DNA of 64,000 bases from an uncultured Eubacteriales bacterium (GTDB lineage Bacteria; Bacillota; Clostridia; Oscillospirales; CAG-272): contig CAKRZR010000008.1 in NCBI GenBank assembly GCA_934433485.1, positions 23,342 through 87,341 of the forward strand, in the 5' to 3' direction. Below, in pieces: positions 5,634 to 64,000 of this stretch (the stretch's first letter is position 1; each line of letters begins with the position of its first letter). The notes beneath the pieces were generated by a model, which saw nothing but the letters and a program-made list of their open reading frames with translations, did no database searches and was not told the origin of the DNA. The position numbers were made by a program, and so were the translations under genes.

Positions 5634-5790
5634 CCGCAATGGACTTGCACAAACCATATCCATCCCTTCCATTTCATAAAAGTTTTGCGGAGCTGGGAGA
5701 AATCGAAGATTTCTCCTGAAGAATGCTCTCGCATTCTTCCATTTTCCAAAAGCCGCGTTCCCCCCTCGTTCGCCTCCCGAGCGAGCGCAC
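5634..5790 (-). repeat. modular intergenic repeat, copy 1 (core, box, two hairpin cassettes, G-rich flank)
   Basis: Contains GGACTTGCACAAAC (core, reverse orientation) and ATAAAAGTTTTGCGG (box, reverse). Hairpins GGAGAAATC-GAA-GATTTCTCC and GAAGAATGC-TCTC-GCATTCTTC, then GCCGCGTTCCCCCCTCG. Ends about 10 bp before the dnaB stop. Confidence 0.85.
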
Positions 5791-5800
5791 CTACGTAAAA

Positions 5801-7132
5801 TCAAGCGCCGGCTTCTTCGGGAGCGAGGTTCGTGAATTTCGTGAAGCGGCCGATCCAGCCTACCTTTACCTTTTCCAGAGAGCCGTGACGGTTTTTCGCG
5901 ACGATGACCTCGGCGACGCTCTGCTCCGGCGTTTCTTCCTTGTAGTATTCGTCACGATAGAGAAACATGACCACGTCCGCATCCTGTTCGATGGCGCCGG
6001 AGTCACGCAGGTCCGACAGCATCGGTCGCTTGTCCGGACGGTTTTCCGGTCCACGCGACAGCTGCGCACAGCAAATTACCGGTACCCGCAGCTCCTTCGC
6101 CAACAGCTTCAAGCCACGCGAGATCTCGCCTGTCTCCTGGACACGGTTGTCCGTGTGCCGCTCACCCTGCATCAGCTGCAGGTAGTCCACGACCACAAGC
6201 CCTAAGTTCTTCACCCGCCGGAGCTTTGACTTCATCCCCGTCACCGTAATGCCCGGCGTGTCGTCAATGAGGATCTCCAGCTCCGACAAATGCGACGCCG
6301 TGTGCGCAATCGCCGTCCAGTCGTCGTCAGTCAGTTGTCCGGAACGCAGACGGAAGCTGTCCACCTGCGCCTCACTCGACAGCATACGGTTTGCCAGCTG
6401 CGACGCCGACATCTCCAGATTGAATACGCAGACCGTCTTTTTCGTCCTGTCCGCCGCCGCCGTCGCTATGTTCATCGCAAAGCTCGTCTTTCCCATGCCG
6501 GGTCGCGCACCGATGAGCACCAGGTCGCTGTCGCCAAGCCCTACGATCACGTTGTCCAGCGCCGTGTATCCCGTCGGCATGCCGCGCGCCCCCTGCGGAT
6601 CCTCCTTGAGCAGCTTCAGATGGTCGTATACCTGCAAAAGCGCGTCCCGGATGTGCACGAAATTCTTGTTCTCGCGCCCCTCCGCGATCCGGAAGATCTT
6701 GCCCTCCGCGTACTCGACCAGGTTTCCGACCTCGTCGTCCCCCGCGTACGCCGCTTCCGTGATGTCCTCACCCGCCTCGATCAGCTGCCGCAGGATCGCC
6801 TTGTCCCGCACGATCCCCGCGTAATCCTTCGCGTTCGCCGACGTGGGCACCGCCTGTGCTACCAGCTTCAGATATTCCCTGCCGCCCGCTTCGTCGTAGG
6901 TCCCCGTCTGCACCAGCTCCTCGATCAGCGTCACAACGTCGATGTTCTTGCTTTTCAGGTACATCTGCTGCATCGCCGTGAAGATCTCCGCGTGCTCCGG
7001 CATGTAGAAATCGTCCCGACTCACGATCGTCGCCAGCTCGTCCATGCACGCCGGATCGATTAAGATCGACCCCAAAACCGCCTGCTCCGCCTCCAGCGAA
7101 AACGGCATCCTTCTTGTGAGTTCTTCATTCAT
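5801..7132 (-). CDS. dnaB: replicative DNA helicase DnaB
   Basis: N-terminus PFSLEAEQAVLGSILID. Walker A GARPGMGKTSFAMN. Typical DnaB C-terminal RecA-like domain. Conserved position after rplI. Confidence 0.97.
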   Translation of the reverse strand: MNEELTRRMPFSLEAEQAVLGSILIDPACMDELATIVSRDDFYMPEHAEIFTAMQQMYLKSKNIDVVTLIEELVQTGTYDEAGGREYLKLVAQAVPTSANAKDYAGIVRDKAILRQLIEAGEDITEAAYAGDDEVGNLVEYAEGKIFRIAEGRENKNFVHIRDALLQVYDHLKLLKEDPQGARGMPTGYTALDNVIVGLGDSDLVLIGARPGMGKTSFAMNIATAAADRTKKTVCVFNLEMSASQLANRMLSSEAQVDSFRLRSGQLTDDDWTAIAHTASHLSELEILIDDTPGITVTGMKSKLRRVKNLGLVVVDYLQLMQGERHTDNRVQETGEISRGLKLLAKELRVPVICCAQLSRGPENRPDKRPMLSDLRDSGAIEQDADVVMFLYRDEYYKEETPEQSVAEVIVAKNRHGSLEKVKVGWIGRFTKFTNLAPEEAGA

Positions 7133-7143
7133 ATGTTAAAGAT

Positions 7144-7526
7144 GCGGGGAAAACTTTTCCCCAAAAAAGTCTTCCCCGCGCCCCTTTCCAAAAACTTTGT
7201 ACATGCATACAAGCCAACTTACACGCCTGTCGTCTCTCAATAGAGCGGTATTCTACCGCTACCAAATAAATGGCAGCAATCGCTCCCCGTAGTGTGCGGG
7301 TCACGGAGTTTAGGGAGCCAATGCATTGGCTCAGCGAAACGCATGGGAGCCGCTCGCGAACGATCTTCTCAGGGAACGGAGCACTCAAATTGGTGAGCAA
7401 TCGGACTTGCACAAACAAAATCCATCACCAATCCCCTTATAAAAGTTTTTGCCAGGCTGAAGAATGCTACCGCATTCTTCCATCTTCACAAAAAGCCGCG
7501 TTCTCCTCGCTCCCCCCGTCTCCCCG
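7144..7526 (-). repeat. modular intergenic repeat, copy 2: full ~380-bp composite filling the rplI-dnaB gap
   Basis: Left end is hairpin GCGGGGAAAACTTTTCCCC...TTCCCCGC plus CCAAAAACTTTGTACA. Internal palindrome GAGCCAATGCATTGGCTC at 7315-7332. Core TTGGTGAGCAATCGGACTTGCACAAAC. Box TATAAAAGTTTTTGCC. Hairpin GAAGAATGC-TACC-GCATTCTTC at 7459-7480. G-rich flank. Confidence 0.9.
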
Positions 7527-7535
7527 TATCCCAGG

Positions 7536-10166: not shown

Positions 10167-10346
10167 TGTTATTGCTCCTTTGAAAAAGGACTATTTGCCG
10201 CCGGGAAGTGGTTTCTTTCCAGGGGGATGCGCCGCCTCCATCGATATTTTGCGCAAAAACGCTCGTATATATGGCTTTCCATTGCAAAATCGACCGCATC
10301 CGCTTTTTCCGAATTTTTCCTCTCCTGTGAGAGACGATACCCGCGC

Positions 10347-11375: not shown

Positions 11376-11564
11376 AGCACATCCTCCTTTCGCCGGAAGC
11401 CTCCGGGGAAGCAGTCGTAGTCTTCCTTATATTATAGCAAATCCGTACGGCATTGTCAACGTGCAAATTTTTTGCCGTCACGGCAACAGCATTTACTTTT
11501 TTACACAGAAAAATCAGGATAGACATCCCACTGTGCCGAGGTAAAGAAGTCGCGAAAGGTTTAC

Positions 11565-11712
11565 TGATCGTTTGTAAAACTTGAAGTTTTACAAACTTCA
11601 TTTGACGCACCGGAATTGCACAAACGATATCCATTTTATCCCAGATAGAAAGTTTTTGAAGGGGTTTGGGGGAACTTTTTCAAAAACTTTCTCCAAGTCC
11701 GTTTCCCCAAAA
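11565..11712 (-). repeat. modular intergenic repeat, copy 3 (short core variant)
   Basis: 13-bp-arm palindrome GTTTGTAAAACTT-G-AAGTTTTACAAAC at 11570-11596. Core variant GGAATTGCACAAACGATATCC. Box AGAAAGTTTTTGAAGG. Hairpin GGGGGAACTTTTTCAAAAACTTTCTCC. Confidence 0.8.
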
Positions 11713-11757
11713 AGTAAATGCTCTTGCCCCGCTTTTGCCGCAAATTTTTCTGCCGCC

Positions 11758-16962: not shown

Positions 16963-17023
16963 GGCGACTTGTCCTTTCTCATGAGGGTGGTGTGATGGCA
17001 AAAGGCGGGTTCTTCATCATCCG

Positions 17024-18837: not shown

Positions 18838-19072
18838 AGGGGAACGGTCGCTTTTGAATGCACGAACAAGTTCGTGTTACGATCTTGTTCGTGCCAGCTC
18901 CCGCAAAACTTTTATGAATGGATGGGATTGGATATAGTTTGTGCGAGTCCGGTTGCTCACCAATATGGTACCGTCCAATACATGAGAAGATCGTTCGCGA
19001 GCGGCTCCCATGCGTTTAGCTGAGCCAATGCATTGGCTCCCTAAACTCCGTGATCCGCACACTACGGGGAGA
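18838..19072 (+). repeat. modular intergenic repeat, copy 4 (flank, hairpins, box, core, module C)
   Basis: GGGGAACGG flank. ACGAACAAGTTCGT and ACGATCTTGTTCGT hairpins. GCAAAACTTTTATGAATGG box. GGATATAGTTTGTGCGAGTCCGGTTGCTCACCAA core. GAGCCAATGCATTGGCTC at 19022-19039. Confidence 0.88.
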
Positions 19073-20616: not shown

Positions 20617-20664
20617 AAAACCCTCTGTCACGGGCTCCCATTCTGTGGCGGAGGGCTTTCTGTT
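20617..20664. terminator. probable intrinsic terminator between convergent rubredoxin and iclR genes
   Basis: Stem CCCTCTGTCAC (20621-20631) / GTGGCGGAGGG (20645-20655) with one wobble, followed by CTTTCTGTT. Confidence 0.45.
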
Positions 20665-20671
20665 GCCTATA

Positions 20672-21439
20672 CTATTTTCCCGGCGCGAAGAGCTTTCGCT
20701 GGATCTCCGCCGCGGCGTTCTTGAGCAGACTTACATAATAATCCACCTCAATCTCCGTTTTGTAGCCGATGAAGCCGGAGAAGGACAGGGCGGCAATGAT
20801 CTCTCCCGCATCGGAACGGATCGGCACCGCGATACAGAAGCCTTCGTTTTGTGATTCGTGCTTATCGAGTGCATAGCCCTGTGCGCGGATCTTCTCTAAT
20901 TCCGCGAGAAACGCCGTTTTATCTGTGATGGTTTTGTCCGTCATGCGGCGGAAATCGATGGCATCGAGCAGTTCTGAGAACAGCGGCTCCGTTAGCTCCG
21001 ACAGCAGAAGCTTCCCGCAGGCACTCGCGTGAAACGGCAGGACAGTTCCGATCGGCGGCACATAGTCCACGATTTTTTCCGTGCGGGACTGTCCGAGAAT
21101 ATAGCACCGATCCAGTTCCCGCACCACGAGGTTCATCGCCTCCTGTTCTGCTTCCGACAGGCGCACCATGATCAGATACGAGACCTCTTTCAGCATGAGA
21201 AGAAAGCTCTTTTTCTCTGTCACCATCGTGATTTTGTAGCCAAGCGTGTATTTCTCTTCTGCGTCCTGATACACCCAACCATAGTTGCACATGGTTTTCA
21301 AAAGGCGGAATGTGGTGGCAGAGCTGATACCGCAGCGTTTCGCGATCTCATTGACGCCGAGCGGGGTCATATCGTCCCGCAGCAAATCCAAAATGGTCAA
21401 CGCCCGCTCAAGCACCCTTACGTTCGTTTTTTCCTCCAT
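20672..21439 (-). CDS. IclR family transcriptional regulator
   Basis: From MEEKTNVRVLERALTILDLL (ATG 21439): IclR HTH (LGVNEIAKRCGISSATTFRLLKTM) plus a C-terminal effector domain. The ORF-track entry 20672..22672 is an artefactual upstream extension. Confidence 0.9.
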   Translation of the reverse strand: MEEKTNVRVLERALTILDLLRDDMTPLGVNEIAKRCGISSATTFRLLKTMCNYGWVYQDAEEKYTLGYKITMVTEKKSFLLMLKEVSYLIMVRLSEAEQEAMNLVVRELDRCYILGQSRTEKIVDYVPPIGTVLPFHASACGKLLLSELTEPLFSELLDAIDFRRMTDKTITDKTAFLAELEKIRAQGYALDKHESQNEGFCIAVPIRSDAGEIIAALSFSGFIGYKTEIEVDYYVSLLKNAAAEIQRKLFAPGK

Positions 21440-21485
21440 ACGCCATACACCTCCGCTGCTTCTATGATGTGCTATTTTCAGGATG

Positions 21486-21561
21486 CTCTGAATCCATCGA
21501 ATTTTTGCGCCGAGAGCCTGAACAGATGGTTTGCAGCGCAAAAAGCAACCTGAAATCAGAG
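21486..21561 (+). repeat. 77-bp palindromic element R2, copy i
   Basis: CTCTGAATCCATCGAATTTTTGCGC...GCGCAAAAAGCAACCTGAAATCAGAG. Same termini and architecture as 29103-29179 and 52832-52908. Confidence 0.8.
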
Positions 21562-21658
21562 TCATTTTCATTGTACCATGATCTTGTGAACGATTCAAGG
21601 CATTCCGTGATACTACTTTATGAAAAAGCATACTGCCAAAAATATTTTCTTTCGTGTA

Positions 21659-21687
21659 TTGACAAAGCCGCATGGAAATGCTATAAT
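21659..21687 (+). promoter_or_regulatory. consensus sigma-A promoter of solute-binding protein paralog 2
   Basis: TTGACA (21659-21664), 17-bp spacer, TATAAT (21682-21687). Confidence 0.7.
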
Positions 21688-21691
21688 GTAA

Positions 21692-21713
21692 AAATGAAAT
21701 ATGCATTTCATTT
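21692..21713. promoter_or_regulatory. candidate operator (perfect 9-bp inverted repeat)
   Basis: AAATGAAAT-ATGC-ATTTCATTT immediately downstream of the -10, between divergent iclR and the SBP gene. Which protein binds it is a guess. Confidence 0.4.
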
Positions 21714-21733
21714 TTTACGTAAGGAGTCAGCAT

Positions 21734-23161
21734 ATGAAAAAAAGTCTTGTGCTTATTTTGGCGATGCTTATCCTGTCCGCGACTGCCTGCGGCGGGAACA
21801 CGCCCTCGGAATCGACCAAATCCAATGGCGAAACGGACGTACAAACGAAATCCGTCACGGAAACAGAAGCAGTGGATCCGGTGGTAAAACGGGATTTCGA
21901 CGGATACACATTCCGCTTTCTCAACGGCAACACCTCGTATGAGCACAACGCGCTTGTGATCGAGGAGGAAACCGCGGACATCATCGATAACGCCTTTTAT
22001 CTCCGGAACATGCGCGTCGGCGAACGATTCAACATCACCTTTGCCGAGACCATCACCAAATCGCCGCAAGCCGACTACACCGCAAGCAGCATCGCCGGAG
22101 ACCAGAGCTTCGACATTGCCACGCTGCGGATGGAATGGGCATTTCCCATCGTGGTGGAAAACCAGGCGTTGCCCTGGACACAGATTCCGAACATCGATCT
22201 CACGCAGAACTACTGGGTGCAAAATTCCCTCTCGGCATTCTCCCTCATGCACAATGTATATTTTGCTGTCAGTGCCTTTGACATCACGCACTACGACAGT
22301 GTCCGCACGTTCGCTTTCAACAAGCGGCTCATTGATCAATACCAGCTGGAATCCCCTTATGCGCTGGTCAGTGCCGGCAAATGGACGCTGGATACCTACA
22401 TGGAGCAGGGTATGGCGATCGCAAATGACGTGGACGGCGACGGCAAATGGACAAGCGCGGATATGTACAGCACGGACAGCAACAGCAACGTATACGTCAA
22501 TACCCTGATGGCGGGCATTGGCTCTATTCTCTCCATCCAAAAGGATAAAGACGATATGCCGTACTTCAATCTGGAGGAAGAATACTACCTCGATCGGATG
22601 GCAAAGGTATCCGACATGATGAAGGAACGGCAGAACGGCTTGATTGCAACAAACGCCTTTGCGAGTGGTCATGCTCTTTTCTACAACAATCTCATCTGCA
22701 CGCTGTCCGGTCTGCGCGAGATGGAGGACGAATTCGGTATCATCCCGGCACCAAAGTATGATGAGGAGCAGGCGGAATACATCAACCTGGGCGGCAGTCC
22801 GTTCTTCATGGTGATACCCGTGTTCTCAGACGATCTGGACCGCACCGGAGCCATTATGGAAGGGCTTGCGGTTGATTCCGTGGGGCTGATCGATGTGGCG
22901 TACTACGACAAGCTGCTCAAAGGAAAGACCTCCCGCGATGAAGAATCCTCCGGTATGCTCGATCTCATCTTCTCCACGCTTGAATACTACCATCCGCTCG
23001 CCAATTCCTACCTCAACGCCCCGCTGGCGGACAATTACATCTGGAACAGCAGCGATCAGATCGTCTCCTATCTCCAGTCCGTAAAGGGAAAAATCGAAAG
23101 CGAAATCGACACCGCGCTGGATACCTACAAAACCAATATGGGCATAGCCTCCGCGCAATAA
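21734..23161 (+). CDS. ABC-type extracellular solute-binding lipoprotein (LplA-like), paralog 2 of 6
   Basis: AAGGAG RBS. MKKSLVLILAMLILSATAC lipobox. Family motifs DVDGDGK, FGIIPAPKYDEEQ, YYDKLLKGKTSRD. Confidence 0.9.
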   Translation: MKKSLVLILAMLILSATACGGNTPSESTKSNGETDVQTKSVTETEAVDPVVKRDFDGYTFRFLNGNTSYEHNALVIEEETADIIDNAFYLRNMRVGERFNITFAETITKSPQADYTASSIAGDQSFDIATLRMEWAFPIVVENQALPWTQIPNIDLTQNYWVQNSLSAFSLMHNVYFAVSAFDITHYDSVRTFAFNKRLIDQYQLESPYALVSAGKWTLDTYMEQGMAIANDVDGDGKWTSADMYSTDSNSNVYVNTLMAGIGSILSIQKDKDDMPYFNLEEEYYLDRMAKVSDMMKERQNGLIATNAFASGHALFYNNLICTLSGLREMEDEFGIIPAPKYDEEQAEYINLGGSPFFMVIPVFSDDLDRTGAIMEGLAVDSVGLIDVAYYDKLLKGKTSRDEESSGMLDLIFSTLEYYHPLANSYLNAPLADNYIWNSSDQIVSYLQSVKGKIESEIDTALDTYKTNMGIASAQ

Positions 23162-23183
23162 ACAAAAATCACACAGAAAGGCA

Positions 23184-40141: not shown

Positions 40142-40174
40142 ATCATTGTCCTTTCTATAGCGATAATAGGTTTT

Positions 40175-44726: not shown

Positions 44727-44756
44727 TTGACAATTGAGCGTGCTTTCAAGTATAAT
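44727..44756 (+). promoter_or_regulatory. sigma-A promoter of the HMA / P1B-ATPase genes
   Basis: TTGACA (44727-44732), 18-bp spacer, TATAAT (44751-44756). Confidence 0.65.
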
Positions 44757-44803
44757 AGTACCAGAACGATTGAATGCGTTTTCAAATGAAAGGACTTACA
44801 ACT

Positions 44804-45025: not shown

Positions 45026-45361
45026 GGGGAACGGGGAACGCGGGGATACGGTCGCTTATAAACCAATGAATCCAGGGATTCATTGCGCTCCGCAAAACTT
45101 TTGTGAAAAGGGGACTGGATATCGTTTGTGCAAGTCGGAAACAAAGCTTGGCTGAAATCAGTTTGGTATCACGCTGGATAGTTGCGAATACTGCCTATCG
45201 TAAGGGGTAGTATGGCTTTACCGCTTGTAGTAGTCGATGAACGTTCCTAACGGCACGAACCGTCCAGTTCCTCACAGACCTGCACAGACACCTACCTATT
45301 TATATATAGTTTTTTGGAAAGGGGCGCGGGGAAGACTTTTTTCCAAAAAAAGTTTTTCCCG
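45026..45361 (+). repeat. modular intergenic repeat, copy 9: ~340-bp composite between the HMA ORF and the ATPase core
   Basis: Starts right after the TGA stop. GGGGAACGGGGAACGCGGGG flank. Palindrome CAATGAATCC-AG-GGATTCATTG (45064-45085). GCAAAACTTTTGTGAAAAGGGG box. GGATATCGTTTGTGCAAGTCGG core. Unique spacer. Inverted end TATAGTTTTTTGGAAAGGGGCGCGGGGAAGACTTTTTT...TTTTTCCCGC. Confidence 0.9.
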
Positions 45362-45391
45362 CATCATCATCCCACAAGAAAGAGGCATACT

Positions 45392-48170: not shown

Positions 48171-48199
48171 TAGACAGAACCTGCTGCATCCAGTATGAT
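48171..48199 (+). promoter_or_regulatory. candidate promoter of SBP paralog 4
   Basis: TAGACA (48171-48176), 17-bp spacer, TATGAT (48194-48199). Palindrome TTGTACA-TCTTTTT-TGTACAA lies just upstream. Confidence 0.45.
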
Positions 48200-48266
48200 A
48201 TTCTTATACGAAAAAATCGAATATGGACATTTGTCGCATAATACACGAGATGAAAAGGGGATTTTC

Positions 48267-49715
48267 ATGAAAAAGAAATGGATCGCACTTCTTACCGCCG
48301 CGCTGCTCCTCGCCGGCTGTCAGACAGTGCCGGACAAAACAGCGAACGACTCTGTCGGAAACGACACGGAGCCGCACACCGAAACGGAAACCGAGACGGA
48401 AACGCCGTCCGTCCTTGAAAAGATCCCACAGGCGGATTACGACGACTACACCTTCCATTATCTCACCGAAAGCTGGACGGGCACCGTCGCCGACCGGTTT
48501 TTGCGGGAATTGCAGTCGGAGGAGGTCACAGGCGAACCCATCAACGACGCCGTCTACGCGCGCAATCAATTCTTGGCGGATCGGCTGCATATCCGGATCA
48601 CGGCGCAGGATGCCGACAACGTATCGCAGTCCGTTCTTGGATCCGTCCGTTCCGGCGAGGATCTCTATCAGCTGGTCGGCGCGTATAAATTCAATACCAC
48701 CTCGCTGCTCTCCCAGCATGCCATCCGGGACTGGAACGCGCTCGACATCGATTTTGACGCGGACTGGTGGAGCCGGGAAGCCGTAAACAAACTGAGCATC
48801 TGCGGCAAGCAATATTTCATGAGCGGCAGCATCCTCATGAGCGAGATCGACGACACACTGGCAATGGCGTTCAACAAGGACATCCAGAACGAATACAAGT
48901 TAGACGACGTATACACCCTTGTGGAAAGTGGAAAATGGACCGTGGACGCGATGAAAACGATGGTGGAGCAGGTTTCAAACGACCTGAACGGCGACGGCAG
49001 GATGGAGCTTGGCGTCGATCTGCTCGGCTACGCGCAGGACAGCAATTCCATGACCACCAACTGGGCGTTCTCCCTCGATCTGCTCCATGGCGCTGTCACG
49101 GAGGAAAACACCTACGAATGGAACATAGACACGGATCGGATCCAGACCGCGCTGGAAAAGGTCAACGCGATGATGGCGCTGGCGAACACGGATCTCGGCA
49201 CAGATTACTACACGGGCCTGGACATTTTCGCCGAGGGAAAGCTGTATTTCTACTCCATTATTTTGAGTGCCCTCGAAATCGTACGCGATATGGAGGACGA
49301 TTTCGGGATCGCGCCGTATCCGAAGCTCGACGAAGCGCAGGCACAGTATTACAACCATGTCGGCAACATGTCCCCGATCCTGTCGCTGCCCATCACGAAC
49401 ACCTCCGACGACGAACGCACTGCCGCGATCCTTACCGCCCTTGCTATCTCCTCCTACGACTACGTGCGCCCCGTCTACTTCGATTCCGTGCTGAAGGGCA
49501 AGCTCTCCCGCGATCCGCAGACCCGTGTGATGCTCGACATCGTACAGCAAAGCGCCACCTACGATCTCCCCTACGTCCTCGGTCCCTCTCTCGCCGGAAC
49601 GGTAAACGGACTGATGCAGAAAAACAGCAGTGATTTTGCTTCTGCATGGAAATCCGCCGAAAAGAGCATGACAACAAGCATCAATAAATTCCTGCAAAGC
49701 ATTACAGAGAAGTAA
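48267..49715 (+). CDS. ABC-type extracellular solute-binding lipoprotein (LplA-like), paralog 4 of 6
   Basis: MKKKWIALLTAALLLAGC lipobox. Motifs DLNGDGR, FGIAPYPKLDEAQ, VYFDSVLKGKLSRD. Confidence 0.9.
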   Translation: MKKKWIALLTAALLLAGCQTVPDKTANDSVGNDTEPHTETETETETPSVLEKIPQADYDDYTFHYLTESWTGTVADRFLRELQSEEVTGEPINDAVYARNQFLADRLHIRITAQDADNVSQSVLGSVRSGEDLYQLVGAYKFNTTSLLSQHAIRDWNALDIDFDADWWSREAVNKLSICGKQYFMSGSILMSEIDDTLAMAFNKDIQNEYKLDDVYTLVESGKWTVDAMKTMVEQVSNDLNGDGRMELGVDLLGYAQDSNSMTTNWAFSLDLLHGAVTEENTYEWNIDTDRIQTALEKVNAMMALANTDLGTDYYTGLDIFAEGKLYFYSIILSALEIVRDMEDDFGIAPYPKLDEAQAQYYNHVGNMSPILSLPITNTSDDERTAAILTALAISSYDYVRPVYFDSVLKGKLSRDPQTRVMLDIVQQSATYDLPYVLGPSLAGTVNGLMQKNSSDFASAWKSAEKSMTTSINKFLQSITEK

Positions 49716-52387: not shown

Positions 52388-52510
52388 GTGGGAGACGAGG
52401 GAACGGGGGGAGACGCGGTCAGAACCTTTTTTTCGAAAAAGGTTCCGACACCTCCAAAAAACTTTATGAAAAAAGGGGGTGGAATTTTTGTTTGTGCAAT
52501 TCCGGGGGGC
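52388..52510 (+). repeat. modular intergenic repeat, copy 10 (between the T-box terminator and the fusion gene)
   Basis: GGGAGACGAGGGAACGGGGGGAGACGCGG flank. Hairpin GGTCAGAACCTTTTTTT-CG-AAAAAAGGTTCCGACA. CCAAAAAACTTTATGAAAAAAGGGGG box. Short core GTTTGTGCAATTCCGG. Confidence 0.85.
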
Positions 52511-52831: not shown

Positions 52832-52908
52832 CTCTGATTTAAGGTTATTTTTGCAATAAAAGCCCTTATATTTTAGCCTTTTATCGCAAAAATCCGATTG
52901 ATTCAGAG
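52832..52908 (-). repeat. 77-bp palindromic element R2, copy iii (inside the 5' leader, between promoter and T-box)
   Basis: Minus-strand reading: CTCTGAATCAATCGGATTTTTGCGATAAAAGGC-TAAAATATAA-GGGCTTTTATTGCAAAAATAACCTTAAATCAGAG. Confidence 0.85.
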
Positions 52909-52925
52909 GTTCCTTAGATATGGGT

Positions 52926-54279: not shown

Positions 54280-55734
54280 ATGAAAAACCGTCAGACCACG
54301 CTCTCCCTGCTCCTCGCCCTTCTTCTCACATCGCCGCTTGTCTCCTGTTCCGCGGGAAACGAGGTTCCGCCCTCCGCGGACAATGCCCAGACGACCATGG
54401 AGCAGACCGTGGAGGAGACCGAAACGGAGCCTGTCTACACCCTGCCCGACTATGACTGCGGCGGCGGCGATCTCATGGTCCTCACGAAGATGGAGGGAAC
54501 CGAATCCGGTCGCTGGACGACGCACGACGTATACGCGGAGGAGCTGACCGGAGAAGCCATCAACGACGCCGTATACAACCGCAACATCGCGCTGCAGGAC
54601 AAGTACCATTGCGTGATCCGGCAGGAGCGGATGAAGATGGACGCCATGCCCTCCGGGATCGCGAAATTCATCCTGGCGGGGGACGCGACCTACGACATCA
54701 TCATGCCGAACATCACCTCCGCCGCCGCGTTGTCGAAGGACGGGAACCTCTACGAGCTGCAGGATCGCCTGGAGCTGACACGCCCCTGGTGGAACGCGCA
54801 GTTTACCAAGGATACGGAGATCGGCGGGAAGAATTATTTCGTAAACGGCGACATCAGCGAAACCTTCATGCGCGCCACCTACGCGATATTCTTCAACAAG
54901 GGGATCATCGCGGACAACAATCTGGAAAATCCGTACAGGCTGGTCGAGGACGGCAGATGGACGATGGACAAGGCGCGTGAGATGGGCGCGGTCTTCGCCT
55001 CCGACGTGGACGGCAACGGCAAGCGGGACGAGACGGTGGACCATTTCGGCTTCTTCGTGCTGTCGAATCAGGTCGAGGCGCTGTACACCTCCTCCGGCGA
55101 GAAGATCATCCGGCTCAGCGAGGACGGCAGCTTCTCGTTCCACGCGGGCGACGAGAGAAGTCTGCGCGTGCTGGAGTCCATCTACAGCCTGTACGCGGAC
55201 AAGGACGTCGTGTGCAACGGCAAGACGGTGGAATCCGGGGAAACCATGTTCTCCGAGGACCGGCTGCTCTTCCTCATGGGCACGATGAACAACGTGGTCT
55301 CGATGCGCGAGATGGAGACGGATTTCGGGATCCTGCCCACACCGAAGGCGGACGAAGCGCAGGCGGAATACTACTCTTACATGAACACATGGGCGTCGAG
55401 CTGCGCCGCGATCCCGGTATCCTGCGCGGACATCGAGAAGTCGTCGATCCTCATGGAGGCGCTGGGCTGTTACTCCCGTGAATACTACACGCCCGCGTAT
55501 TATGAGATCACCCTGAAGGGCAAATCCTCCCGCGATACGGAATCGCTCGGGATGCTCGATCTGATCTACGAGCGGCGCACGGCGGATCTCGGCAACCTGT
55601 TCAACATCGGGGGCGTTCTCTCCGGCGCGACCGACCTTGTGAACCGCGGCAAGAATTCCTTCACCTCCCTCATCGAATCGAAGGCCGCCGCCGTCGAAAA
55701 GGAGCTTGCGGAGCTGAACGATATGCTCGGATAA
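54280..55734 (+). CDS. ABC-type extracellular solute-binding lipoprotein (LplA-like), paralog 5 of 6
   Basis: MKNRQTTLSLLLALLLTSPLVSC lipobox. Motifs DVDGNGK, FGILPTPKADEAQ, YYEITLKGKSSRD. Confidence 0.9.
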   Translation: MKNRQTTLSLLLALLLTSPLVSCSAGNEVPPSADNAQTTMEQTVEETETEPVYTLPDYDCGGGDLMVLTKMEGTESGRWTTHDVYAEELTGEAINDAVYNRNIALQDKYHCVIRQERMKMDAMPSGIAKFILAGDATYDIIMPNITSAAALSKDGNLYELQDRLELTRPWWNAQFTKDTEIGGKNYFVNGDISETFMRATYAIFFNKGIIADNNLENPYRLVEDGRWTMDKAREMGAVFASDVDGNGKRDETVDHFGFFVLSNQVEALYTSSGEKIIRLSEDGSFSFHAGDERSLRVLESIYSLYADKDVVCNGKTVESGETMFSEDRLLFLMGTMNNVVSMREMETDFGILPTPKADEAQAEYYSYMNTWASSCAAIPVSCADIEKSSILMEALGCYSREYYTPAYYEITLKGKSSRDTESLGMLDLIYERRTADLGNLFNIGGVLSGATDLVNRGKNSFTSLIESKAAAVEKELAELNDMLG

Positions 55735-58433: not shown

Positions 58434-58688
58434 TGCGGGGGAAAACTATTTCGAGAAAAAGTTTTCCCCCGCGCCCCCTTTCAAAAAGCTTTGTAAAAAC
58501 AGATATAAATAATGAGGAGTGAGGAGGGAACTGTATTGGTGAGCAGTCGGACTTGCACAAACTATATCCAAATCCATCCCTAAATAAAAGTTTTGTGGAG
58601 CTGGAACGAACAAGATCGTAACACGAACTTGTTCGTTCATTCAAAAGCGACCGTTCCCCTCGTGCCCCGCGTTCCCCTCGTTTCCCAG
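58434..58688 (-). repeat. modular intergenic repeat, copy 11 (between SBP6 and the GH78 gene)
   Basis: Hairpin GCGGGGGAAAACTATTTC-GA-GAAAAAGTTTTCCCCCGC plus TCAAAAAGCTTTGTAAAAAC box. Core TTGGTGAGCAGTCGGACTTGCACAAAC. TAAATAAAAGTTTTGTGG box. ACGAACAAGATCGT and ACGAACTTGTTCGT hairpins. G-rich flank rc (CCGTTCCCCTCGTGCCCCGCGTTCCCCTCG). Confidence 0.9.
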
Positions 58689-58693: not shown

Positions 58694-60139
58694 TTATTCG
58701 TTGAATACCGCAATATCCGCAGCGATGCCGGATTCGATTTTGGCGGAGATTTTGGCGAAAGCGGAGGCGATATCCGCGTTGCCCTTGCCGATGTTCTGCT
58801 CAAGCGCGGAACGCATGTCGCCCCAGTTGTAGACGTAGCCGATCTCGAAGCGGCCGGAGTCGAGGATGGTATCCAGGGACGCTACGCTCGCCTCGTCGCG
58901 CACCAGCTTGGAGCCGAGCACCACGTCGTAGTACATGCCGCGCACCGTGCGGTTCGATTCGGCAGCCAGGTTTTCGAGCACCACACCGGTCCTGTCCGCG
59001 TCGGAGACCGTCACCGGCACGCAAAGCCCGATCGCGCCGTGATAGACCGGGGACACGTATTCCGCGCCCTCATCCGCTTTCGGCAGCACCACGATCCCGA
59101 ATTCGCTCTCCATGTCGCGCAGCTCCGGCAGCGTCCCCAGCACCTCCATCATGTAGAGCGCGCGGTCCGTCTTGAATACACCCTGGTACCCGCCGTCCAC
59201 CTTCTCCACACCGGCAGTCCCGCTCTTCACCGTCGTGTGCTTGTCCGTGTAGAGCGTCATCACCTTCCGGTACGCGTCAATGAACGCCTCCGATAAGCCG
59301 TCATATACCGGATACCCGTCCGCGTCCCGGCTAAGCGGCGACTGCCCCAGCGCAAGGATCATCGACTGCCCCGCGTTCGAGTGCATCGCCACCCCGTACG
59401 TGTCCGCGTCCGCGGTCCATTCGCCGTCGCCGTTGACATCCGTGGACGCCGCCTGCGCCGTGCTGTAGTATACGTCATACGTCCACTTGCCCTCGTCCAC
59501 CGTCACGTAGGGATCCGGGATCTGGAACTTCTCCGCCACCGTCTTGTTGAAGAAGATCGCGTAGTAGGACTCATAGAACATCAGGTTGATGTCCCCGATC
59601 ATCATGTATTCCCGCGGTCCGATCGCCATGTCCCGGATCGCGTTCCCGTTCCACCACGGCATGTCGGTACGAATCGCAGACAGCGCGGCGGTATCCAGAA
59701 GCATCTTCTGCTGCGCCGTCGTCATGAGGTTAAACGCCATCAGCGTCATCGCGTCGTAGGCGTCCTCGCTTGCGAGAACCGTCGCCTTTACCTCGTCCAT
59801 GACCTTGCTGTAGTGCAGCCCCGTCTCCGTGATCACAATGCCGAGCCTGTCCTCCACCGCCAGATTCCGCGCGAACACCGCGTCGTCCAGCACCTCGCCG
59901 GTCTGTTCCTCTACGTCCATGCGATAATAGCCCCAGTTTTCCTCCGTCGTCAGAAAGCGGAAGCCGTAGCCGTCGTAGCTGCCTGCCGGTACGTTGTCCC
60001 AGATCTCCGTCTCCTGTACGGTTTCCGCGGCGTCGACAGCCGTGTCCGCCGTGCCTGTGGTCTCTTTGTCCGTCGTTTCCGCGCCGCAGCCCACAAGCAT
60101 GGCGCACAAAAGCAGCGCTGTGATGATTCGCTTTTTCAT
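58694..60139 (-). CDS. ABC-type extracellular solute-binding lipoprotein (LplA-like), paralog 6 of 6
   Basis: GGGAGGAAA RBS. MKKRIITALLLCAMLVGC lipobox. Motifs DVNGDGE, FGIVVLPKADEGAEY, MYYDVVLGSKLVRD. Confidence 0.9.
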   Translation of the reverse strand: MKKRIITALLLCAMLVGCGAETTDKETTGTADTAVDAAETVQETEIWDNVPAGSYDGYGFRFLTTEENWGYYRMDVEEQTGEVLDDAVFARNLAVEDRLGIVITETGLHYSKVMDEVKATVLASEDAYDAMTLMAFNLMTTAQQKMLLDTAALSAIRTDMPWWNGNAIRDMAIGPREYMMIGDINLMFYESYYAIFFNKTVAEKFQIPDPYVTVDEGKWTYDVYYSTAQAASTDVNGDGEWTADADTYGVAMHSNAGQSMILALGQSPLSRDADGYPVYDGLSEAFIDAYRKVMTLYTDKHTTVKSGTAGVEKVDGGYQGVFKTDRALYMMEVLGTLPELRDMESEFGIVVLPKADEGAEYVSPVYHGAIGLCVPVTVSDADRTGVVLENLAAESNRTVRGMYYDVVLGSKLVRDEASVASLDTILDSGRFEIGYVYNWGDMRSALEQNIGKGNADIASAFAKISAKIESGIAADIAVFNE

Positions 60140-60171
60140 GGGTTTCCTCCCGTCGATAATGATTTGTGCAT

Positions 60172-60200
60172 ATTGTACCATATTTCCCCGCGGTTGGCAA
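60172..60200 (-). promoter_or_regulatory. sigma-A promoter of the SBP6 / GH78 unit
   Basis: Minus strand: TTGCCA (60200-60195), 17-bp spacer, extended -10 TGgTACAAT (60180-60172). Confidence 0.6.
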
Positions 60201-60316
60201 GAGTTATCGCACAATTTGTTTCCGCAAAAAATCCGCAAGCTCCTGCCGCCGCATTTCTCCGCCTCCCTTGTAGCGCAGGGTTCGCGAACAATTTACAAAG
60301 TCTCGGCATCCTGCCG

Positions 60317-60411: not shown

Positions 60412-61521
60412 ATGAAAATACTGCACACAGGCGACCTGCATCTCGACAGCGCTTTCCATTCGCTCACCGAACGGCAGGCGGAAATCCGGAAAAACGAGCT
60501 GCGCGCCGCGTTTACGTCCATGATGACCTACGCGCGCATGAACGACATCTCCCTCGCCCTCTTCGCAGGAGACGTTTTTGACAGCGCGTACGCCACCCGC
60601 GAAACCTTGTCGCTGCTCGCGGCGGAATTTGCGCGCTTCGGCAGACCGGTCGTCATCGCAACGGGCAACCACGATCCCTCCGGCACCCTCTGGAACGGCG
60701 TGGATTTTCCCGACAACGTCACCATTTTGGGCAAACCGGAAATGCAGCGCGTCGTGTTTCCGGAGCTGAACTGCGAGGTCTGGGGCTACGGCTTTGACAC
60801 GCAGAACCTCGACAAAAGTCCCCTGGAGGGCTTCCGCCTTCCAGACCCGGACGCGGAGGACGAAAACCGGATCCGGCTCGTCGTCTGTCACGCGGATACC
60901 GCCGATCAGAGCAGCACGAACGCGCCTCTGTCCGAGCAGTCGCTGCGGGATTGCGGCGCCGACTACATTGCCCTCGGTCACATCCACAACGCCCCGCCGA
61001 TGGGGGAAAAATGGGCGTACTGCGGCTGTCTGGAGGGACGCAAGTTCACGGAGCCGGGTCCAAAGGGCGCGTGCATCGCGGAAATTCACAAGGAAAACGG
61101 CGTCTCGGACGTGCGTGTGCGGCGGGTACGCTTCTCCAAGCGGCGCTACGAAACCGCGGTGCTCTCCGTAGACGGCATTGCCACACAGGCGGAAGCGGCG
61201 GAGCGGATCCGGGCGTGTGTTGCGGAGAAAAAGCTCGGCGAGGACTGTCTGCTCCGTGTGACGCTGTCCGGACAGGTTTCGCCCACCCTCGTGCTGCAGC
61301 CGGAGCTGTTTGCGTCGGACGGACTGTTTGCCCTCACCGTCGTGGACAACACCGTGCCGGAGGTCGATCTGGACGTGCTGCGGCGGGATCCCGGTATCCG
61401 CGGCGCGTTTCTGCGTGCCTTAGAGCCGCACCTCACCTCCCGCGACCCCGGAGAAAGAGAAAGCGCGCGTATCGCTCTGCGCAACGGTCTGTCCGCCATC
61501 GACGGCGGCACGATCGGGTGA
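60412..61521 (+). CDS. SbcD/YhaO-like metallophosphoesterase (DNA repair exonuclease family)
   Basis: Calcineurin-like motifs HTGDLHLD, GDVFD, GNHD and GHIH. 369 aa from MKILHTGD. Confidence 0.88.
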   Translation: MKILHTGDLHLDSAFHSLTERQAEIRKNELRAAFTSMMTYARMNDISLALFAGDVFDSAYATRETLSLLAAEFARFGRPVVIATGNHDPSGTLWNGVDFPDNVTILGKPEMQRVVFPELNCEVWGYGFDTQNLDKSPLEGFRLPDPDAEDENRIRLVVCHADTADQSSTNAPLSEQSLRDCGADYIALGHIHNAPPMGEKWAYCGCLEGRKFTEPGPKGACIAEIHKENGVSDVRVRRVRFSKRRYETAVLSVDGIATQAEAAERIRACVAEKKLGEDCLLRVTLSGQVSPTLVLQPELFASDGLFALTVVDNTVPEVDLDVLRRDPGIRGAFLRALEPHLTSRDPGERESARIALRNGLSAIDGGTIG

Positions 61522-61624
61522 GACAGGGCAAAAATTCATACAAATCTTCATCCACAAAAAAGTTTACTATAAAACGGCGCGCGCCGGCATCTCCTGCATC
61601 CGCCGCCGTTTTCCAAGGTGACCT

Positions 61625-63796
61625 ATGAAAATACTGGAAATCCATATGGATCGGTTCGGCATGCTGCGGGATCGCCTGATCCGGTTTGACGGCGGGATCA
61701 ACGTGCTCTCCGGCGAAAATGAAAGCGGCAAGTCGACGGTGCTGTCCTTTATCCGCTACCTGCTGTACGGACTGCCGAAAGCAGGCGGCGCCGTCACAGA
61801 CGCGGATCGCTTCGGCACGGACGGCGATATCGGCGGCTCCATGATATACGTAACGGACAACGGCGAAAAGTACCGGCTTGAGCGGCACACCACCGTGGAC
61901 GGCAGAGATCGCGCGCAGGTCGTAGCGCTCGCCACCGGGGTCGTGACCGCGGATCCGGAGCCGGGCGTGCGGCTGTTCGGCGTGTCGGAAAAGGTCTTTT
62001 CCGGAAGCGCCTTTGTCAGTCAGCCGGAGGGAGTCGGCGTATCCGGGCTGTCCGGCGCAATTGAGAACATCCTCACCGCCGCCGATGTGACCGTGAGCGT
62101 CCAAAAGGCAGCGGACAGGCTCAATCAGGCGCGCCGCACGCTGTCCCCGAAAAAGGGCGACGGCGGAGAGATCGCGCAGAAAAAGGCGACCCTTGCCCGC
62201 CTGGAGGAGGAGCTTGCCGCCTCCCGCGAAAACGTCCGCGCCGTCTGCGATACCGAAGCCGCCCTGCGCGACGCGAAAAAGAAACGGCTCGCCCTGGAGG
62301 AGAAAAAGAACGCGATCGCGGCAAAGCTGTCCGCGTGCGACACGTTTCTGACCGGCAGACGGATCGATCTGCTTGCGGACACCGAGAAAAAGCTCGCCGG
62401 GTACGAAAACGCGCTTGCCGTATTGAACGCACCGCCGTACGCGCATCTCACAGACACCGCCGCGTCTCTTGCCGACCGGTACAGGGCAGCGCAGGACGTA
62501 CCTTCCGCCATAGCGCCCGCACCGAACGGTCCCAGCACGGAAACCGCCGCGGAAGCCTATGAGGAGGGCGAATACTGGGAATCCAAGAGCAAGCTGCACC
62601 TCGCGCTCGGCATCGCCATGGTCATCGCGGGTCTGCTCGGACTTGCGTGCGCCATCGTGATGATCTGGTTCTCGTTCCCGGTCAGTCAGTTCGTCGTGCC
62701 CCTGATCGCCACCGTCGTTTGTCTCGCGCTCGGGATCGTGTTCTACGTCCTGCAGGGCAGAAGCGTACGGCAGCTGAACGCCATCCTGGACGATTGGGCG
62801 ATGGAGACCCTCGACGATCTGGGCGTGCTTGCCGAAACCGAGGGCAAATTCCCGGAGGTCACGCTGCCTGCCGACGACGCGCCTGTCGGGGAAGAAGAAG
62901 CCGCCGTCGCCGGAGAGATCCGCGCGCTTGCCGTGGAATGCGGAATCGCGGACGCGGACAAAGCGGCGGACACCGCCATCGACGCGCTCCTATTGGCGCT
63001 GACGGAAAAAGGACGCAAGGCGGACGCGGATCGCTCCCTCGTCATCGGCAAGGTGGAAAACCTGCGTGGTCGTGTCTCCGTACTGCGGGAACAGGTCGGC
63101 GACGCGGATCGTGCCGCCGTTGCCGCGCGTTGTCGGGAATTATTGCGCACGCCTGCCGGCAAGGAGGCGATCGCTCTGGACGCGGAGGGGCTTAAAAAGC
63201 TGCAGCGGGAGCGCGAGTTTACCGAGAGTGCGTGGACGGCGCAGTACAAGCGGGAAACGGAGCTGGAAAAAGCCTTTGCCGCCCAGAACAACGCGGGTCT
63301 CACACCGCCGGATGTGCTGTCCACGAAGATCTACGCGCTGCGCCATGAGATCGCCGCGCTGGAAACACGTGCCGCCGGGTTCGAGATGGCGTATGACGCG
63401 CTGCGCACTGCCGGGGAATCGCTCCGCGCCGATGTGACGCCGCAGATTACGGAACGCGCGTCCCAGTATATACAGATGGCGACCGGCGGAAAATACAGCG
63501 AGGTGCGTGTGGACCCCACGTTCGCCGTGACCTGTCTGACCGAGCGCGGCACCGTCGCCGTGGACACGCTGTCCGGTGGTACCGCCGCCGCCGCATATAT
63601 CGCCCTGCGCCTCGCCCTCATGGACGTCCTGTTCGCCGGTCATGAGTCCGCCCCCCTTTTCGCCGACGAGGCATTCTCTGCCCTCGACCTCCCCAGACTC
63701 CACGCCGTATACGATATTCTCGCACACTCCGGCAGACAATCCATCCTCTGCACCTGCCGTCCGGACGACGCCGCGGGGAATGTGATCCGGATGTAA
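61625..63796 (+). CDS. YhaN/SbcC-like AAA/SMC-type ATPase with a central transmembrane hairpin
   Basis: Walker A GENESGKST. Long coiled-coil-like Ala/Glu/Lys-rich segments. Two central hydrophobic helices (LALGIAMVIAGLLGLACAIVMIW, VVPLIATVVCLALGIVFYVL). Signature LSGGT. Walker B LFADEAFSALD. Confidence 0.85.
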   Translation: MKILEIHMDRFGMLRDRLIRFDGGINVLSGENESGKSTVLSFIRYLLYGLPKAGGAVTDADRFGTDGDIGGSMIYVTDNGEKYRLERHTTVDGRDRAQVVALATGVVTADPEPGVRLFGVSEKVFSGSAFVSQPEGVGVSGLSGAIENILTAADVTVSVQKAADRLNQARRTLSPKKGDGGEIAQKKATLARLEEELAASRENVRAVCDTEAALRDAKKKRLALEEKKNAIAAKLSACDTFLTGRRIDLLADTEKKLAGYENALAVLNAPPYAHLTDTAASLADRYRAAQDVPSAIAPAPNGPSTETAAEAYEEGEYWESKSKLHLALGIAMVIAGLLGLACAIVMIWFSFPVSQFVVPLIATVVCLALGIVFYVLQGRSVRQLNAILDDWAMETLDDLGVLAETEGKFPEVTLPADDAPVGEEEAAVAGEIRALAVECGIADADKAADTAIDALLLALTEKGRKADADRSLVIGKVENLRGRVSVLREQVGDADRAAVAARCRELLRTPAGKEAIALDAEGLKKLQREREFTESAWTAQYKRETELEKAFAAQNNAGLTPPDVLSTKIYALRHEIAALETRAAGFEMAYDALRTAGESLRADVTPQITERASQYIQMATGGKYSEVRVDPTFAVTCLTERGTVAVDTLSGGTAAAAYIALRLALMDVLFAGHESAPLFADEAFSALDLPRLHAVYDILAHSGRQSILCTCRPDDAAGNVIRM

Positions 63797-63800
63797 CTTG

Positions 63801-64000
63801 TGGGAACGAGGGGAACGGGGGAACGAGGAGAACGCGGCTTTTTGTGAAGATGGAAGAATGCGGTAGCATTCTTCAGGAGAAATCAAAGATTTCTCCCAGC
63901 CTGGCAAAAACTTTTATGAGAAGGATGGATTTGGATTTCGTTTGTGCAAGTCCGACTGCTCACCAAGCTGGTTTCTGTATCGTTTTGAATATCGTCTGTT
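63801..64000 (+). repeat. modular intergenic repeat, copy 12 (runs off the window end)
   Basis: GGGAACGAGGGGAACGGGGGAACGAGGAGAACGCGG flank. GAAGAATGC-GGTA-GCATTCTTC hairpin. GGAGAAATC-AAA-GATTTCTCC (63876-63896). GGCAAAAACTTTTATGAGAAGG box. GGATTTCGTTTGTGCAAGTCCGACTGCTCACCAA core. Confidence 0.9.

Follow-up and report, generated by a model that had tools for sequence, protein, structure and literature searches.

The repeat family and its hosts

The stretch of DNA analyzed here, called the window throughout, comprises 64,000 nt (positions 23,342–87,341 of the forward strand) of contig CAKRZR010000008.1 from an uncultured Eubacteriales bacterium of CAG-272 (assembly GCA_934433485.1); it is 58% G+C and has no tRNA genes. 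Between its genes lie the copies of a family of modular, hairpin-bearing, non-coding repeats. An earlier, sequence-only reading of the window had counted 12 copies. Eleven of them do share the same box and core module, as found by nhmmer with a hidden Markov model (HMM) of that module (E from 5e-20 to 1e-13), while the twelfth, copy 8, is the next-best match (E = 0.001) and consists of an end module only. An unbiased repeat search of the window also returned long matches between copies, among them ones of 106 nt (92% identity), 80 nt (94%) and 130 nt (82%). The high density of the family was borne out (11–12 copies per 64 kb, about one per 5 kb), every copy in the window is intergenic, and both orientations are represented.

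Anatomy of the unit, as well as its position relative to genes, was studied on 140 copies in 506 kb of loci. The modules follow each other in the order of an optional pre-array piece (GTAGGTGCG..), an array of GGGGRACG octamers, an AT-rich hairpin, the box CAAAACTTTTAT and the core GTTTGTGCAAGTCC. When the window copies are aligned on the core, a spacer of ~20 nt rich in GGATGG separates box from core, one or two near-perfect palindromes stand between the G-rich units and the box, and the core has the short variant GTTTGTGCAATTCCGG. The building blocks previously read from the sequence (G-rich flank, palindromic hairpin, box, core with its short variant, and an optional block of ~90 bp around GAGCCAATGCATTGGCTC) were all found as described by reading the sequences and by alignment of the arms, and the optional block proved to be the expanded tip of a hairpin, H3, in copies 2, 4, 6 and 7. 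The canonical sequence in metagenome-assembled genomes (MAGs), within which sequence comparison found the family homogeneous, is (GGGGRACG)n GGTCGC-TTTTGAAAAA-GCTCCGCAAAACTTTTAT, followed by ~20 nt and then by GTTTGTGCAAGTCC.T.TGC.CACCAAT. The most frequent octamer of the arrays is GGGGAACG, and the arrays have a median length of 26 nt and contain 0–9 G-tracts. The small AT-rich basal hairpin can hold larger perfect palindromes in its loop, for example GAACGAACTTGTTCGTTC, AATGAATCCaaGGATTCATT, GAAGAATGCggtaGCATTCTTC and GGAGAAATCttcGATTTCTCC; as these nested palindromes recur over copies and species, they are modules in their own right.

Of 112 arms, 87 are long arms, on which the arm alignment is based. 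They continue for ~170 nt more, via a CACCAAT hairpin, to the hairpin H3 (GCGGCT-xxx-loop-xxx-ATCCGC). H3 is present in 34 distinct variants in the 87 arms, yet its stem and a 1x1 C.U mismatch are kept in all of them, while the upper pairs covary (CCC/GGG, GAC/GTC, CCG/CGG, CAC/GTG) and the tip can contain additional hairpins. Read on the reverse strand it is GTAG-AA-GGCGGAT-xxx-loop-xxx-AGCCGC, with two unpaired bases after GTAG and a stem of 7–9 bp. There are two arm subtypes, V1 and V2, the latter terminating in GTAGGTGCGGTC.TTAGGGTGGAGAACG and a second G-rich array, which makes head-to-tail chaining of units possible. Four forms of the unit exist: the solo arm, the arm closed by an inverted box and a G-rich hairpin, the convergent pair, and the head-to-tail chain. 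The convergent pairs are composites of 550–800 bp with inverted arms of ~250 bp and octamer arrays at both outer ends, and some of them have a genuine bidirectional terminator in the middle. Similarity to the full arm stops at 45–74 nt, at 135–194 nt or at full length, and these points are module boundaries.

Three features had been overlooked in the sequence-only reading: the inverted box and hairpin at the far end of five copies (2, 7, 8, 9 and 11), where they stand just upstream of a start codon; the nature of copy 3, which is a discrete miniature inverted-repeat transposable element (MITE) with its own terminal inverted repeats (TIRs); and the nature of copy 12, which is one half of a convergent pair extending past the window end. 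The features of the window are as follows.

Copy 1, 5634–5797 (−): nhmmer E = 1.2e-16; pre-array module GTAGGTGCG..GGGAGG immediately past the dnaB stop codon, then the G-rich array; nested palindromes GAAGAATGCgagaGCATTCTTC and GGAGAAATCttcGATTTCTCC; box 5675–5687; core 5640–5654.
Island, 4330–5646 (no strand): 1.3 kb, low-GC and strain-specific, beginning just past the core of copy 1.
Copy 2, 7144–7526 (−): complete solo unit filling the rplI-dnaB spacer; arrays 7508–7525, palindrome, box 7438–7451, core 7402–7416; H3 with expanded tip 7296–7353, then CTAC (GTAG on the other strand); inverted box 7189–7201; G-rich end hairpin 7146–7184, 12 nt ahead of the dnaB ATG.
Copy 3, 11479–11731 (−): MITE with TIR CACGGCAACAGCATTTAC at 11479–11496 and its inverted copy at 11714–11731; interior with a G-rich hairpin, box 11646–11658, short core 11611–11625 and the variable tandem repeat CTTCAAGTTTTACAAA.
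Copy 4, 18838–19072 (+): single octamer next to a divergent start codon, double palindrome, box 18904–18916, core 18937–18951, H3 with expanded tip 19001–19058, then CTAC.
Copy 5, 27910–28013 (−): short form; array past the stop codon of gene 28014–29006, palindrome GAACGAACTTGTTCGTTC, box 27950–27963, short core 27916–27930.
Copy 6, 39056–39292 (+): long arm past the stop codon of a DUF362 gene; box 39125–39136, core 39158–39172, H3 39222–39280.
Copy 7, 40175–40580 (−): complete solo unit; arrays 40558–40574, box 40496–40509, core 40461–40475, H3 40352–40410, inverted box 40219–40232, end hairpin 40177–40215.
Copy 8, 42500–42612 (−): end module only; inverted box 42558–42571, no core, two G-rich/AT hairpins ahead of the start codon at 42462.
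Copy 9, 45026–45377 (+): array, palindrome AATGAATCCagGGATTCATT, box 45093–45105, core 45124–45138, unrelated interior, inverted box and end hairpin 45311–45377.
Copy 10, 52388–52510 (+): short form; arrays 52390–52415 beside a divergent start codon, perfect palindrome of 11 bp, box 52455–52468, short core 52490–52504.
Copy 11, 58434–58688 (−): arrays 58652–58686, double palindrome, box 58585–58595, core 58548–58562, inverted box 58482–58495, end hairpin 58439–58478.
Copy 12, 63801–64000 (+): cut by the window end; arrays 63802–63825, two nested palindromes, box 63905–63918, core 63940–63954.
Ends made of inverted box and hairpin: 7146–7201, 40177–40232, 42513–42571, 45311–45377 and 58439–58495.

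The family also occurs outside the window. A specific box...core pattern, run over one genome each of 185,579 species, gave 73 stretches, all of them from only four species representatives, the uncultured Clostridia MAGs HGM12660, UMGS1696, UMGS1122 and H07616-L1; UMGS1696 is Candidatus Wallaceimonas (Oscillospirales, family CAG-272). Since the genes of the window are only 77–90% identical to those of the four MAGs, the window represents a fifth related species. The same pattern was found in 48 metagenome stretches, all labelled ones being from human gut, and the DnaB protein of the window is encoded on 24 human-gut metagenome contigs. One of the 48 stretches (L132) was discarded as a chance hit in an unrelated low-GC contig. 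As the same elements are present in four MAGs and in over 20 independent metagenome assemblies, the repeats are not an assembly artefact. Many family matches lie at contig ends, which indicates that assemblies break at the repeat; for this reason the MAGs of the clade are fragmented and their spacers unreliable. In an uncultured but common human-gut lineage the repeats make up several per cent of the genome, and their conserved 14-nt core is a highly specific marker of the clade.

No fit to catalogued repeat families had been recognized from the sequence alone, and the searches made agree with this. The family pattern had no match in 2.9 million viral contigs, nor had the canonical element in the plasmid collection; Rfam gave no match at gathering score on the window and none at E ≤ 1 on the canonical pair or on window 4300–5800; no insertion sequence (IS) or transposon with the ends of the family was met in the collections searched, the plasmid and viral ones among them; and the 14-nt core string did not occur in a text search of 8.3 million papers. 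Only partly right is the lack of any likeness to repetitive extragenic palindromic (REP) sequences and bacterial interspersed mosaic elements (BIMEs), as the long arm has a REP-like layout on the opposite strand and inverted pairs are similar to BIME dimers, a resemblance which is weighed below.

Copies as the main source of structural variation between strains

The window was compared with 26 strain contigs, ~45 kb being comparable. Insertions or deletions larger than 25 bp occur at eight distinct sites, six of which are in or beside copies or in a spacer with a short-core copy in other strains; the two exceptions are an indel of a Fic gene and a 40-bp change. The copies are therefore the main source of structural variation between strains in the compared region, and most of the large differences found in it, i.e. 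indels, allele replacement and a 40-kb inversion, involve them.

For copy 3, comparison of orthologous spacers for presence or absence and for target-site duplications (TSDs) revealed an empty site in four of seven strains (L001, L002, L004, L006), TIRs of 18–20 bp, a TSD of 9–10 bp at two loci, and a 94%-identical copy at a second genomic locus. With TIRs, a TSD, empty sites and multiple loci, copy 3 is a true MITE. In other species its spacer has a canonical arm in the opposite orientation, so the insertions there are independent. A 16-nt tandem repeat, CTTCAAGTTTTACAAA, in this copy (window 11565–11600) varies from one to three units between strains (L003, L005).

Other copies differ between strains by exchange of modules. 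In the rplI-dnaB spacer the window and six conspecific strains (L001–L006) differ only in the left module (7416–7519), which was swapped for one with a different palindrome and a different box-core spacer, and the element of this spacer is kept in five species, each with a different hairpin. The left module of copy 6 (39064–39124) is swapped in L081, L082, L084 and L085. The spacer of copy 7 (40164–40555) is found among conspecific strains as two unrelated alleles of the same plan, and in L083 exactly the 43-nt end hairpin of copy 7 is missing. The spacer orthologous to that of copy 10 has in L036 a long-core copy instead of the short form. Copies also serve as sites of recombination: in one conspecific strain (sample ERZ15609702, contig L100) the inner part of copy 4 is fused to the sequence flanking copy 11 on its outer side, from which we conclude that ~40 kb were inverted by recombination between inverted copies (window 18838–58688, L100 6428–13589). 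The same contig is without window 20659–23166, including a gene earlier called a sugar-binding protein.

Low-GC foreign islands adjoin the inner ends of arms, both in the window (1.3 kb) and in metagenome loci. The site of the window island, 4330–5646, is only 41–45 bp long in six other strains. Its open reading frame (ORF) at 4628–5077 (+) has a G+C content at third codon positions (GC3) of 0.26 and an N-terminus like a lipoprotein signal; the ORF has no Pfam or PHROGs match, and the island no Rfam or plasmid match. Just past the inner end of other arms are a BglII-type restriction endonuclease with an MT-A70 methylase (L115 2688–4234) and a YhcG/DUF1016 PDDEXK nuclease (L105 2846–3967). Integron-like, site-specific insertion at the core was considered and rejected, because the islands begin past the arm inner ends at no fixed base. 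A transposon carrying the gene between copies 6 and 7 was likewise rejected. These two copies are a convergent pair flanking an ordinary EEP hydrolase gene, which has the GC3 of the host and is syntenic in another species. The genes enclosed by arm pairs are generally housekeeping ones (EEP hydrolase, CbiQ, hydrogenase, Maf, POR, rRNA methylase).

The array is the end common to all copies while the other end differs, array length differs between strains, and there is no TSD of fixed length. These traits could also be expected of a retroelement similar to short interspersed nuclear elements, of which the (CGTYCCCC)n array on the opposite strand would be the 3' tail, used in target-primed reverse transcription. 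We regard such an origin as extremely improbable, as the far ends of copies cluster at module boundaries instead of being randomly truncated, copies are commonly arranged in inverted pairs or head-to-tail chains, a reverse transcriptase was not seen, and the EEP gene enclosed by copies 6 and 7 belongs to the host and is syntenic.

Two variable regions are also worth describing. The Fic-domain gene (~333 aa, 946 bp; window 16989–17012), situated between an aminotransferase gene and a gene for an 818-aa protein, is present in L090, L092, L096, L097 and L099, and absent in the window, L091, L094 and L098. The MatE-HMA spacer (window 44028–44790 versus L081 1372–2066) is highly polymorphic, with 290 bp against 693 bp; other strains have in it a short-core copy, the window has none, and it also contains hairpins such as CTCGGACGTTCGTCCGAG.

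Gene context, function and origin of the family

It had been proposed that a copy usually fills almost the whole gap between neighboring genes. The intergenic placement stands, and the association can now be refined to the 3' ends of genes, with the array abutting stop codons. Among 129 scorable copies the array lies towards the stop codon of a co-oriented gene in 90 and towards a divergent start codon in 39, while on the core side there are 51 start and 48 stop codons at broadly distributed distances. In tandem spacers 42 copies are co-oriented with the genes and 19 anti-oriented; convergent spacers contain 20 copies and divergent ones seven. The median distance from the HMM match to the upstream stop codon is 57 nt, which is occupied by the array and hairpins, and in the examples read the arrays start 0–10 nt past the stop codon. 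As the array abuts stops and the core side has no preference for starts, the family is associated with the 3' ends of genes and with spacers between cistrons, like REPs, and not with promoters. In one locus (L058 ~7300–7350, MAG HGM12660; read by eye) an ORF has apparently lost its stop codon, which is TAA in the L024 orthologue, and its frame seems to continue across the octamer array (..GTGDEGNGGDGRF) up to a TGA within the basal hairpin, so that there the repeat seems to supply a C-terminal tail and a stop codon.

Copies sit in transcribed spacers. In the full contig copy 12 is followed by a bidirectional intrinsic terminator, on the other side of which stands an inverted short copy (the spacer is complete in L101 13380–13810), and since copy 12 lies between a stop codon and that terminator it is transcribed. 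In the window alone most copies point to a downstream start codon, and a cassette in which the hairpin ends the upstream transcript and box...core drives the downstream gene would account for this. The larger sample makes such a cassette very improbable: over the 140 copies the core side faces starts and stops about equally (51 versus 48) and at widely varying distances. Promoter-like and terminator-like consensus matches in copies are no commoner than in shuffled sequences; the promoters of the organism are canonical (TTGACA-N17-TATAAT) and its terminators GC-rich, and both lie outside the copies. Box and core are unlike sigma-70 hexamers, with the most conserved bases off the −10 positions, and the hairpins are AT-rich with no T-run directly after them. 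A role of the copies as promoter cassettes was therefore rejected on the orientation statistics and consensus scans, and one as intrinsic terminators on the composition of the hairpins, the missing adjacent T-run and the location of real terminators elsewhere. A small peptide encoded in box-core was dismissed as well, because by eye the reading frame is not kept between copies. In an informal comparison by eye with consensus sequences, box and core did not fit sigma-54, extracytoplasmic function (ECF) sigma factor or Bacteroidetes-type promoters, nor an IHF site, dif, attC or a tRNA T-arm.

A host-selected cis-acting RNA element of 3' untranslated regions (UTRs) and intercistronic regions, protecting mRNA 3' ends, tuning expression or insulating against antisense transcription, should be considered next. 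Arrays within a few bases of stops, an orientation following the upstream gene, an rplI-dnaB architecture kept in five species despite change of the hairpin sequence, and stems that stay perfect through sequence turnover would all suit it, as would the transcription of copy 12. The opposite strand is C-rich and rut-like, as antisense insulation would ask for, and repetition could be the reuse of a useful cassette. In all 87 arms the strand that is sense to the upstream gene has the more stable fold, by 18 kcal/mol. However, against dinucleotide shuffles folding has z-scores of −0.71 (forward strand) and −0.60 (reverse strand), and the G.U pairs of H3 number eight and seven on the two strands; the weak z-scores and symmetric G.U counts indicate that the 18 kcal/mol difference is compositional, and they give no sign of selection at the RNA level. 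The arm as a single folded RNA was rejected on the same z-scores, the structure being local, i.e. that of the palindromes; RNAalifold on the 87 arms was uninformative, as indels in the hairpin tips spoil the alignment. The canonical G-quadruplex motif (at least four tracts of three or more G, loops of 1–7 nt) in 39 of 124 arrays would also suit the element, but only these 31% could form this structure, and most arrays have 2–3 tracts. In addition, about 30% of copies are reversed, beside start codons, copies are present or absent or replaced by unrelated alleles between strains with identical flanking genes, and they match neither a terminator nor a promoter consensus. We consider a host-selected RNA element unlikely.

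The reading that we prefer, with a probability of roughly 0.6, is that the copies represent a new, lineage-specific family of non-coding, non-autonomous mosaic palindromic repeats, spread by trans-acting transposition and gene conversion and tolerated mainly in 3' UTRs. The family would owe its spread to an enzyme encoded at another genomic site and acting in trans, gene conversion between copies would continually homogenize and reshuffle them, and copies would survive mainly where they are least harmful, in 3' UTRs and between cistrons. Effects on transcripts, by 3'-end hairpins and G-rich tracts, would be a by-product and not the reason for the existence of the family. The copy 3 subfamily demonstrates transposition in the manner of a classical MITE, and we infer trans-acting transposition for the remaining family. 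The GTAG hairpin and the lack of TSDs in canonical arms suggest a hairpin-recognizing enzyme of the HUH or REP-associated tyrosine transposase (RAYT) type. The family is probably the functional counterpart of REP/BIME and MITE elements in an uncultured Oscillospirales clade.

Several observations weigh against this. Canonical arms are without TSDs (six pairs were examined) and without a defined terminal nucleotide, the latter because the end arrays vary in length. GTAG is internal to the conserved arm and not terminal, and, as read from the alignment, ATAG replaces it in the V2 subfamily, i.e. in roughly 40% of arms. The same spacers are occupied in species whose genes are only 77–90% identical, and such cross-species retention, together with the gene-related orientation bias, would fit a host-selected function equally well. 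The loci used for position statistics were selected for containing a copy, and their genes were called crudely by GC3. The absence of a RAYT, transposase or integrase from the window, claimed before, was borne out in so far as there is no Y1/RAYT-like ORF and neither transposases nor integrases are among the entries of the Pfam tables, which cover ~1–22, 33–46 and 50–64 kb of it. In ~1 Mb of element-rich DNA, transposases were not found either, and neither phmmer with E. coli RayT and IS608 TnpA (sequences checked against PDB) nor motif scans found a RAYT/Y1 ORF there, in a search that could easily miss a single-copy gene. Because neither a transposase nor a RAYT turned up in this ~1 Mb, the trans-acting enzyme is a purely putative one.

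The opposite strand of H3 brings the family close to GTAG REPs, which have a terminal GTAG, sometimes two unpaired bases, and an imperfect palindrome with a 5–13-bp stem, form covarying sub-families, and are situated downstream of ORFs and in head-to-head dimers (Di Nocera et al. 2013, PMC3733652). Similarly to REP/BIME and GTAG REP, our copies are extragenic, high-copy and mostly 3' of ORFs in tandem and convergent spacers; like BIMEs they are mosaics of a few modules with inverted dimers and a locus composition differing between strains, and like GTAG REPs they have an imperfect GC-rich palindrome, GTAG with two unpaired bases, covarying sub-families and a conserved mismatch. On the other hand, units of the family measure 100–400 bp as opposed to 20–40 bp of a REP, GTAG lies inside the arm, the GTAG hairpin is missing from many copies, the family has, besides octamer arrays and nested perfect palindromes, a box and core that are invariant and non-palindromic, and the host is a Firmicute; no RAYT was found. 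Membership in the GTAG REPs is thus not established, given the internal GTAG, the ATAG of V2, the short copies without H3 and the missing RAYT. To our knowledge, octamer arrays, nested palindromes and an invariant non-palindromic box and core have no known counterpart.

A true system of REPs or their inverted pairs (REPINs) with a RAYT would mean that H3 is the active site, which a single-copy RAYT with its gene elsewhere would cut and transfer as single-stranded DNA, and that the other modules are passengers as in BIMEs. In accordance with this, the layout of H3 (GTAG, two unpaired bases, stem, covariation, mismatch) repeats the listed features of GTAG REPs, the copies lie 3' of ORFs in tandem and convergent spacers and are often inverted dimers, they persist vertically in the same spacers across species, and they lack TSDs, as expected of IS200/IS605-type transposition. 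It is, nevertheless, difficult to reconcile with a GTAG that is not at the end of the conserved unit and is ATAG in V2, with the good conservation of the short copies 5, 10, 1 and 12, which have no H3, and with the failure to find a RAYT/Y1 ORF in ~1 Mb; the 2013 survey of GTAG repeats lists hosts among Proteobacteria, Cyanobacteria, Chloroflexi and the Planctomycetes-Verrucomicrobia-Chlamydiae group, and no Firmicutes (PMC3733652). We regard this alternative as possible but doubtful.

For the preferred reading, a mosaic family moved in trans, the REPIN-RAYT populations of Bertels and Rainey are also instructive. Both have inverted arm pairs and, in our family probably as well, hundreds of copies per genome, and both are lineage-confined, are not met in phage or plasmid collections, and are retained in orthologous spacers across species, a pattern which suggests vertical inheritance. 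They differ in the arms, which here are ~250 bp and mosaic compared with a pair of ~20-bp REPs with a short spacer, and in the defining RAYT, which was not found. With MITEs (Correia/NEMIS of Neisseria, RUP of pneumococcus) the family shares short, non-coding, intergenic, often co-transcribed units with a terminal inverted structure that are present or absent between strains, and copy 3 alone corresponds to the full definition. Canonical arms, in contrast, have neither TSD nor fixed terminal sequence, the collections searched yielded no parent IS with matching ends, and the shared box and core lie within the copy 3 MITE and do not form its ends. BOX elements of Streptococcus pneumoniae (boxA-(boxB)n-boxC) are also Firmicute, modular, intergenic and non-coding, with a variable sub-repeat and predicted hairpins, but there is no sequence similarity, our family is far denser, and its variable sub-repeat is 8 nt, G-rich and at the element end, whereas that of BOX is 45 nt and internal. 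In behavior, being modular, located in 3' UTRs, lineage-restricted, persistent and strain-variable, the family is closest to BIME/REPIN populations.

It is tempting to speculate, although we hold this only tentatively, that the family is a REPIN-like, vertically inherited intragenomic replicator in Firmicutes, driven by a hairpin-recognizing enzyme (a divergent RAYT or a new one), with GGGGRACG arrays as its landing pads or footprints. We know of no description of REPIN-like systems in Firmicutes. Such a replicator would explain the variation of arrays, the palindromes nested in loops and the foreign islands (restriction-modification, PDDEXK nucleases) beside arms. If a REP-like system with its own enzyme works in Clostridia, the REP/BIME/REPIN concept extends past the phyla of the 2013 survey; the octamer arrays at stop codons and the nested palindromes are unusual features which could reveal the mechanism.

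Neighboring genes and a second repeat

An all-versus-all comparison of 1,620 ORFs from the loci gave one multi-copy family, of ~500-aa proteins, and apart from it no multi-copy or transposase-like ORF near copies. Six paralogues are encoded in the window (1847–3388, 21701–23161, 29189–30754, 48195–49715, 54280–55734 and 58694–60238). They were earlier taken for sugar-binding proteins; one member of the family has a weak SBP_bac_1 Pfam match and others have no match on record. A second, unrelated repeat is a long palindrome of ~75 nt, CTCTGAAT..TTTTTGCGATAAAAGGC...GCTTTTATCGCAAAAA..TCAGAG, located at window 29093–29179, 52832–52918 (inverted), 21481–21560 and 10225–10287, with two copies 90% identical. 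Three of the four, the exception being 10225–10287, are in spacers beside genes for the ~500-aa proteins, and this repeat could be an operator or leader element.

Between copies 11 and 12 (window 60412–63796) there is a pair of genes with Metallophos and AAA_23/SMC_N domains, SbcCD-like by domain content; a look-up of the protein encoded at 61625–63796 gave no record. SbcCD is a nuclease that cuts DNA hairpins, so an SbcCD-like pair would matter in a genome so rich in palindromes. Finally, ~6–10 kb past the window end (L101 17775–21110) there are phage-like genes (Sipho_Gp37, and Phage_Gp15 in L103), which points to a prophage or its remnant just downstream.

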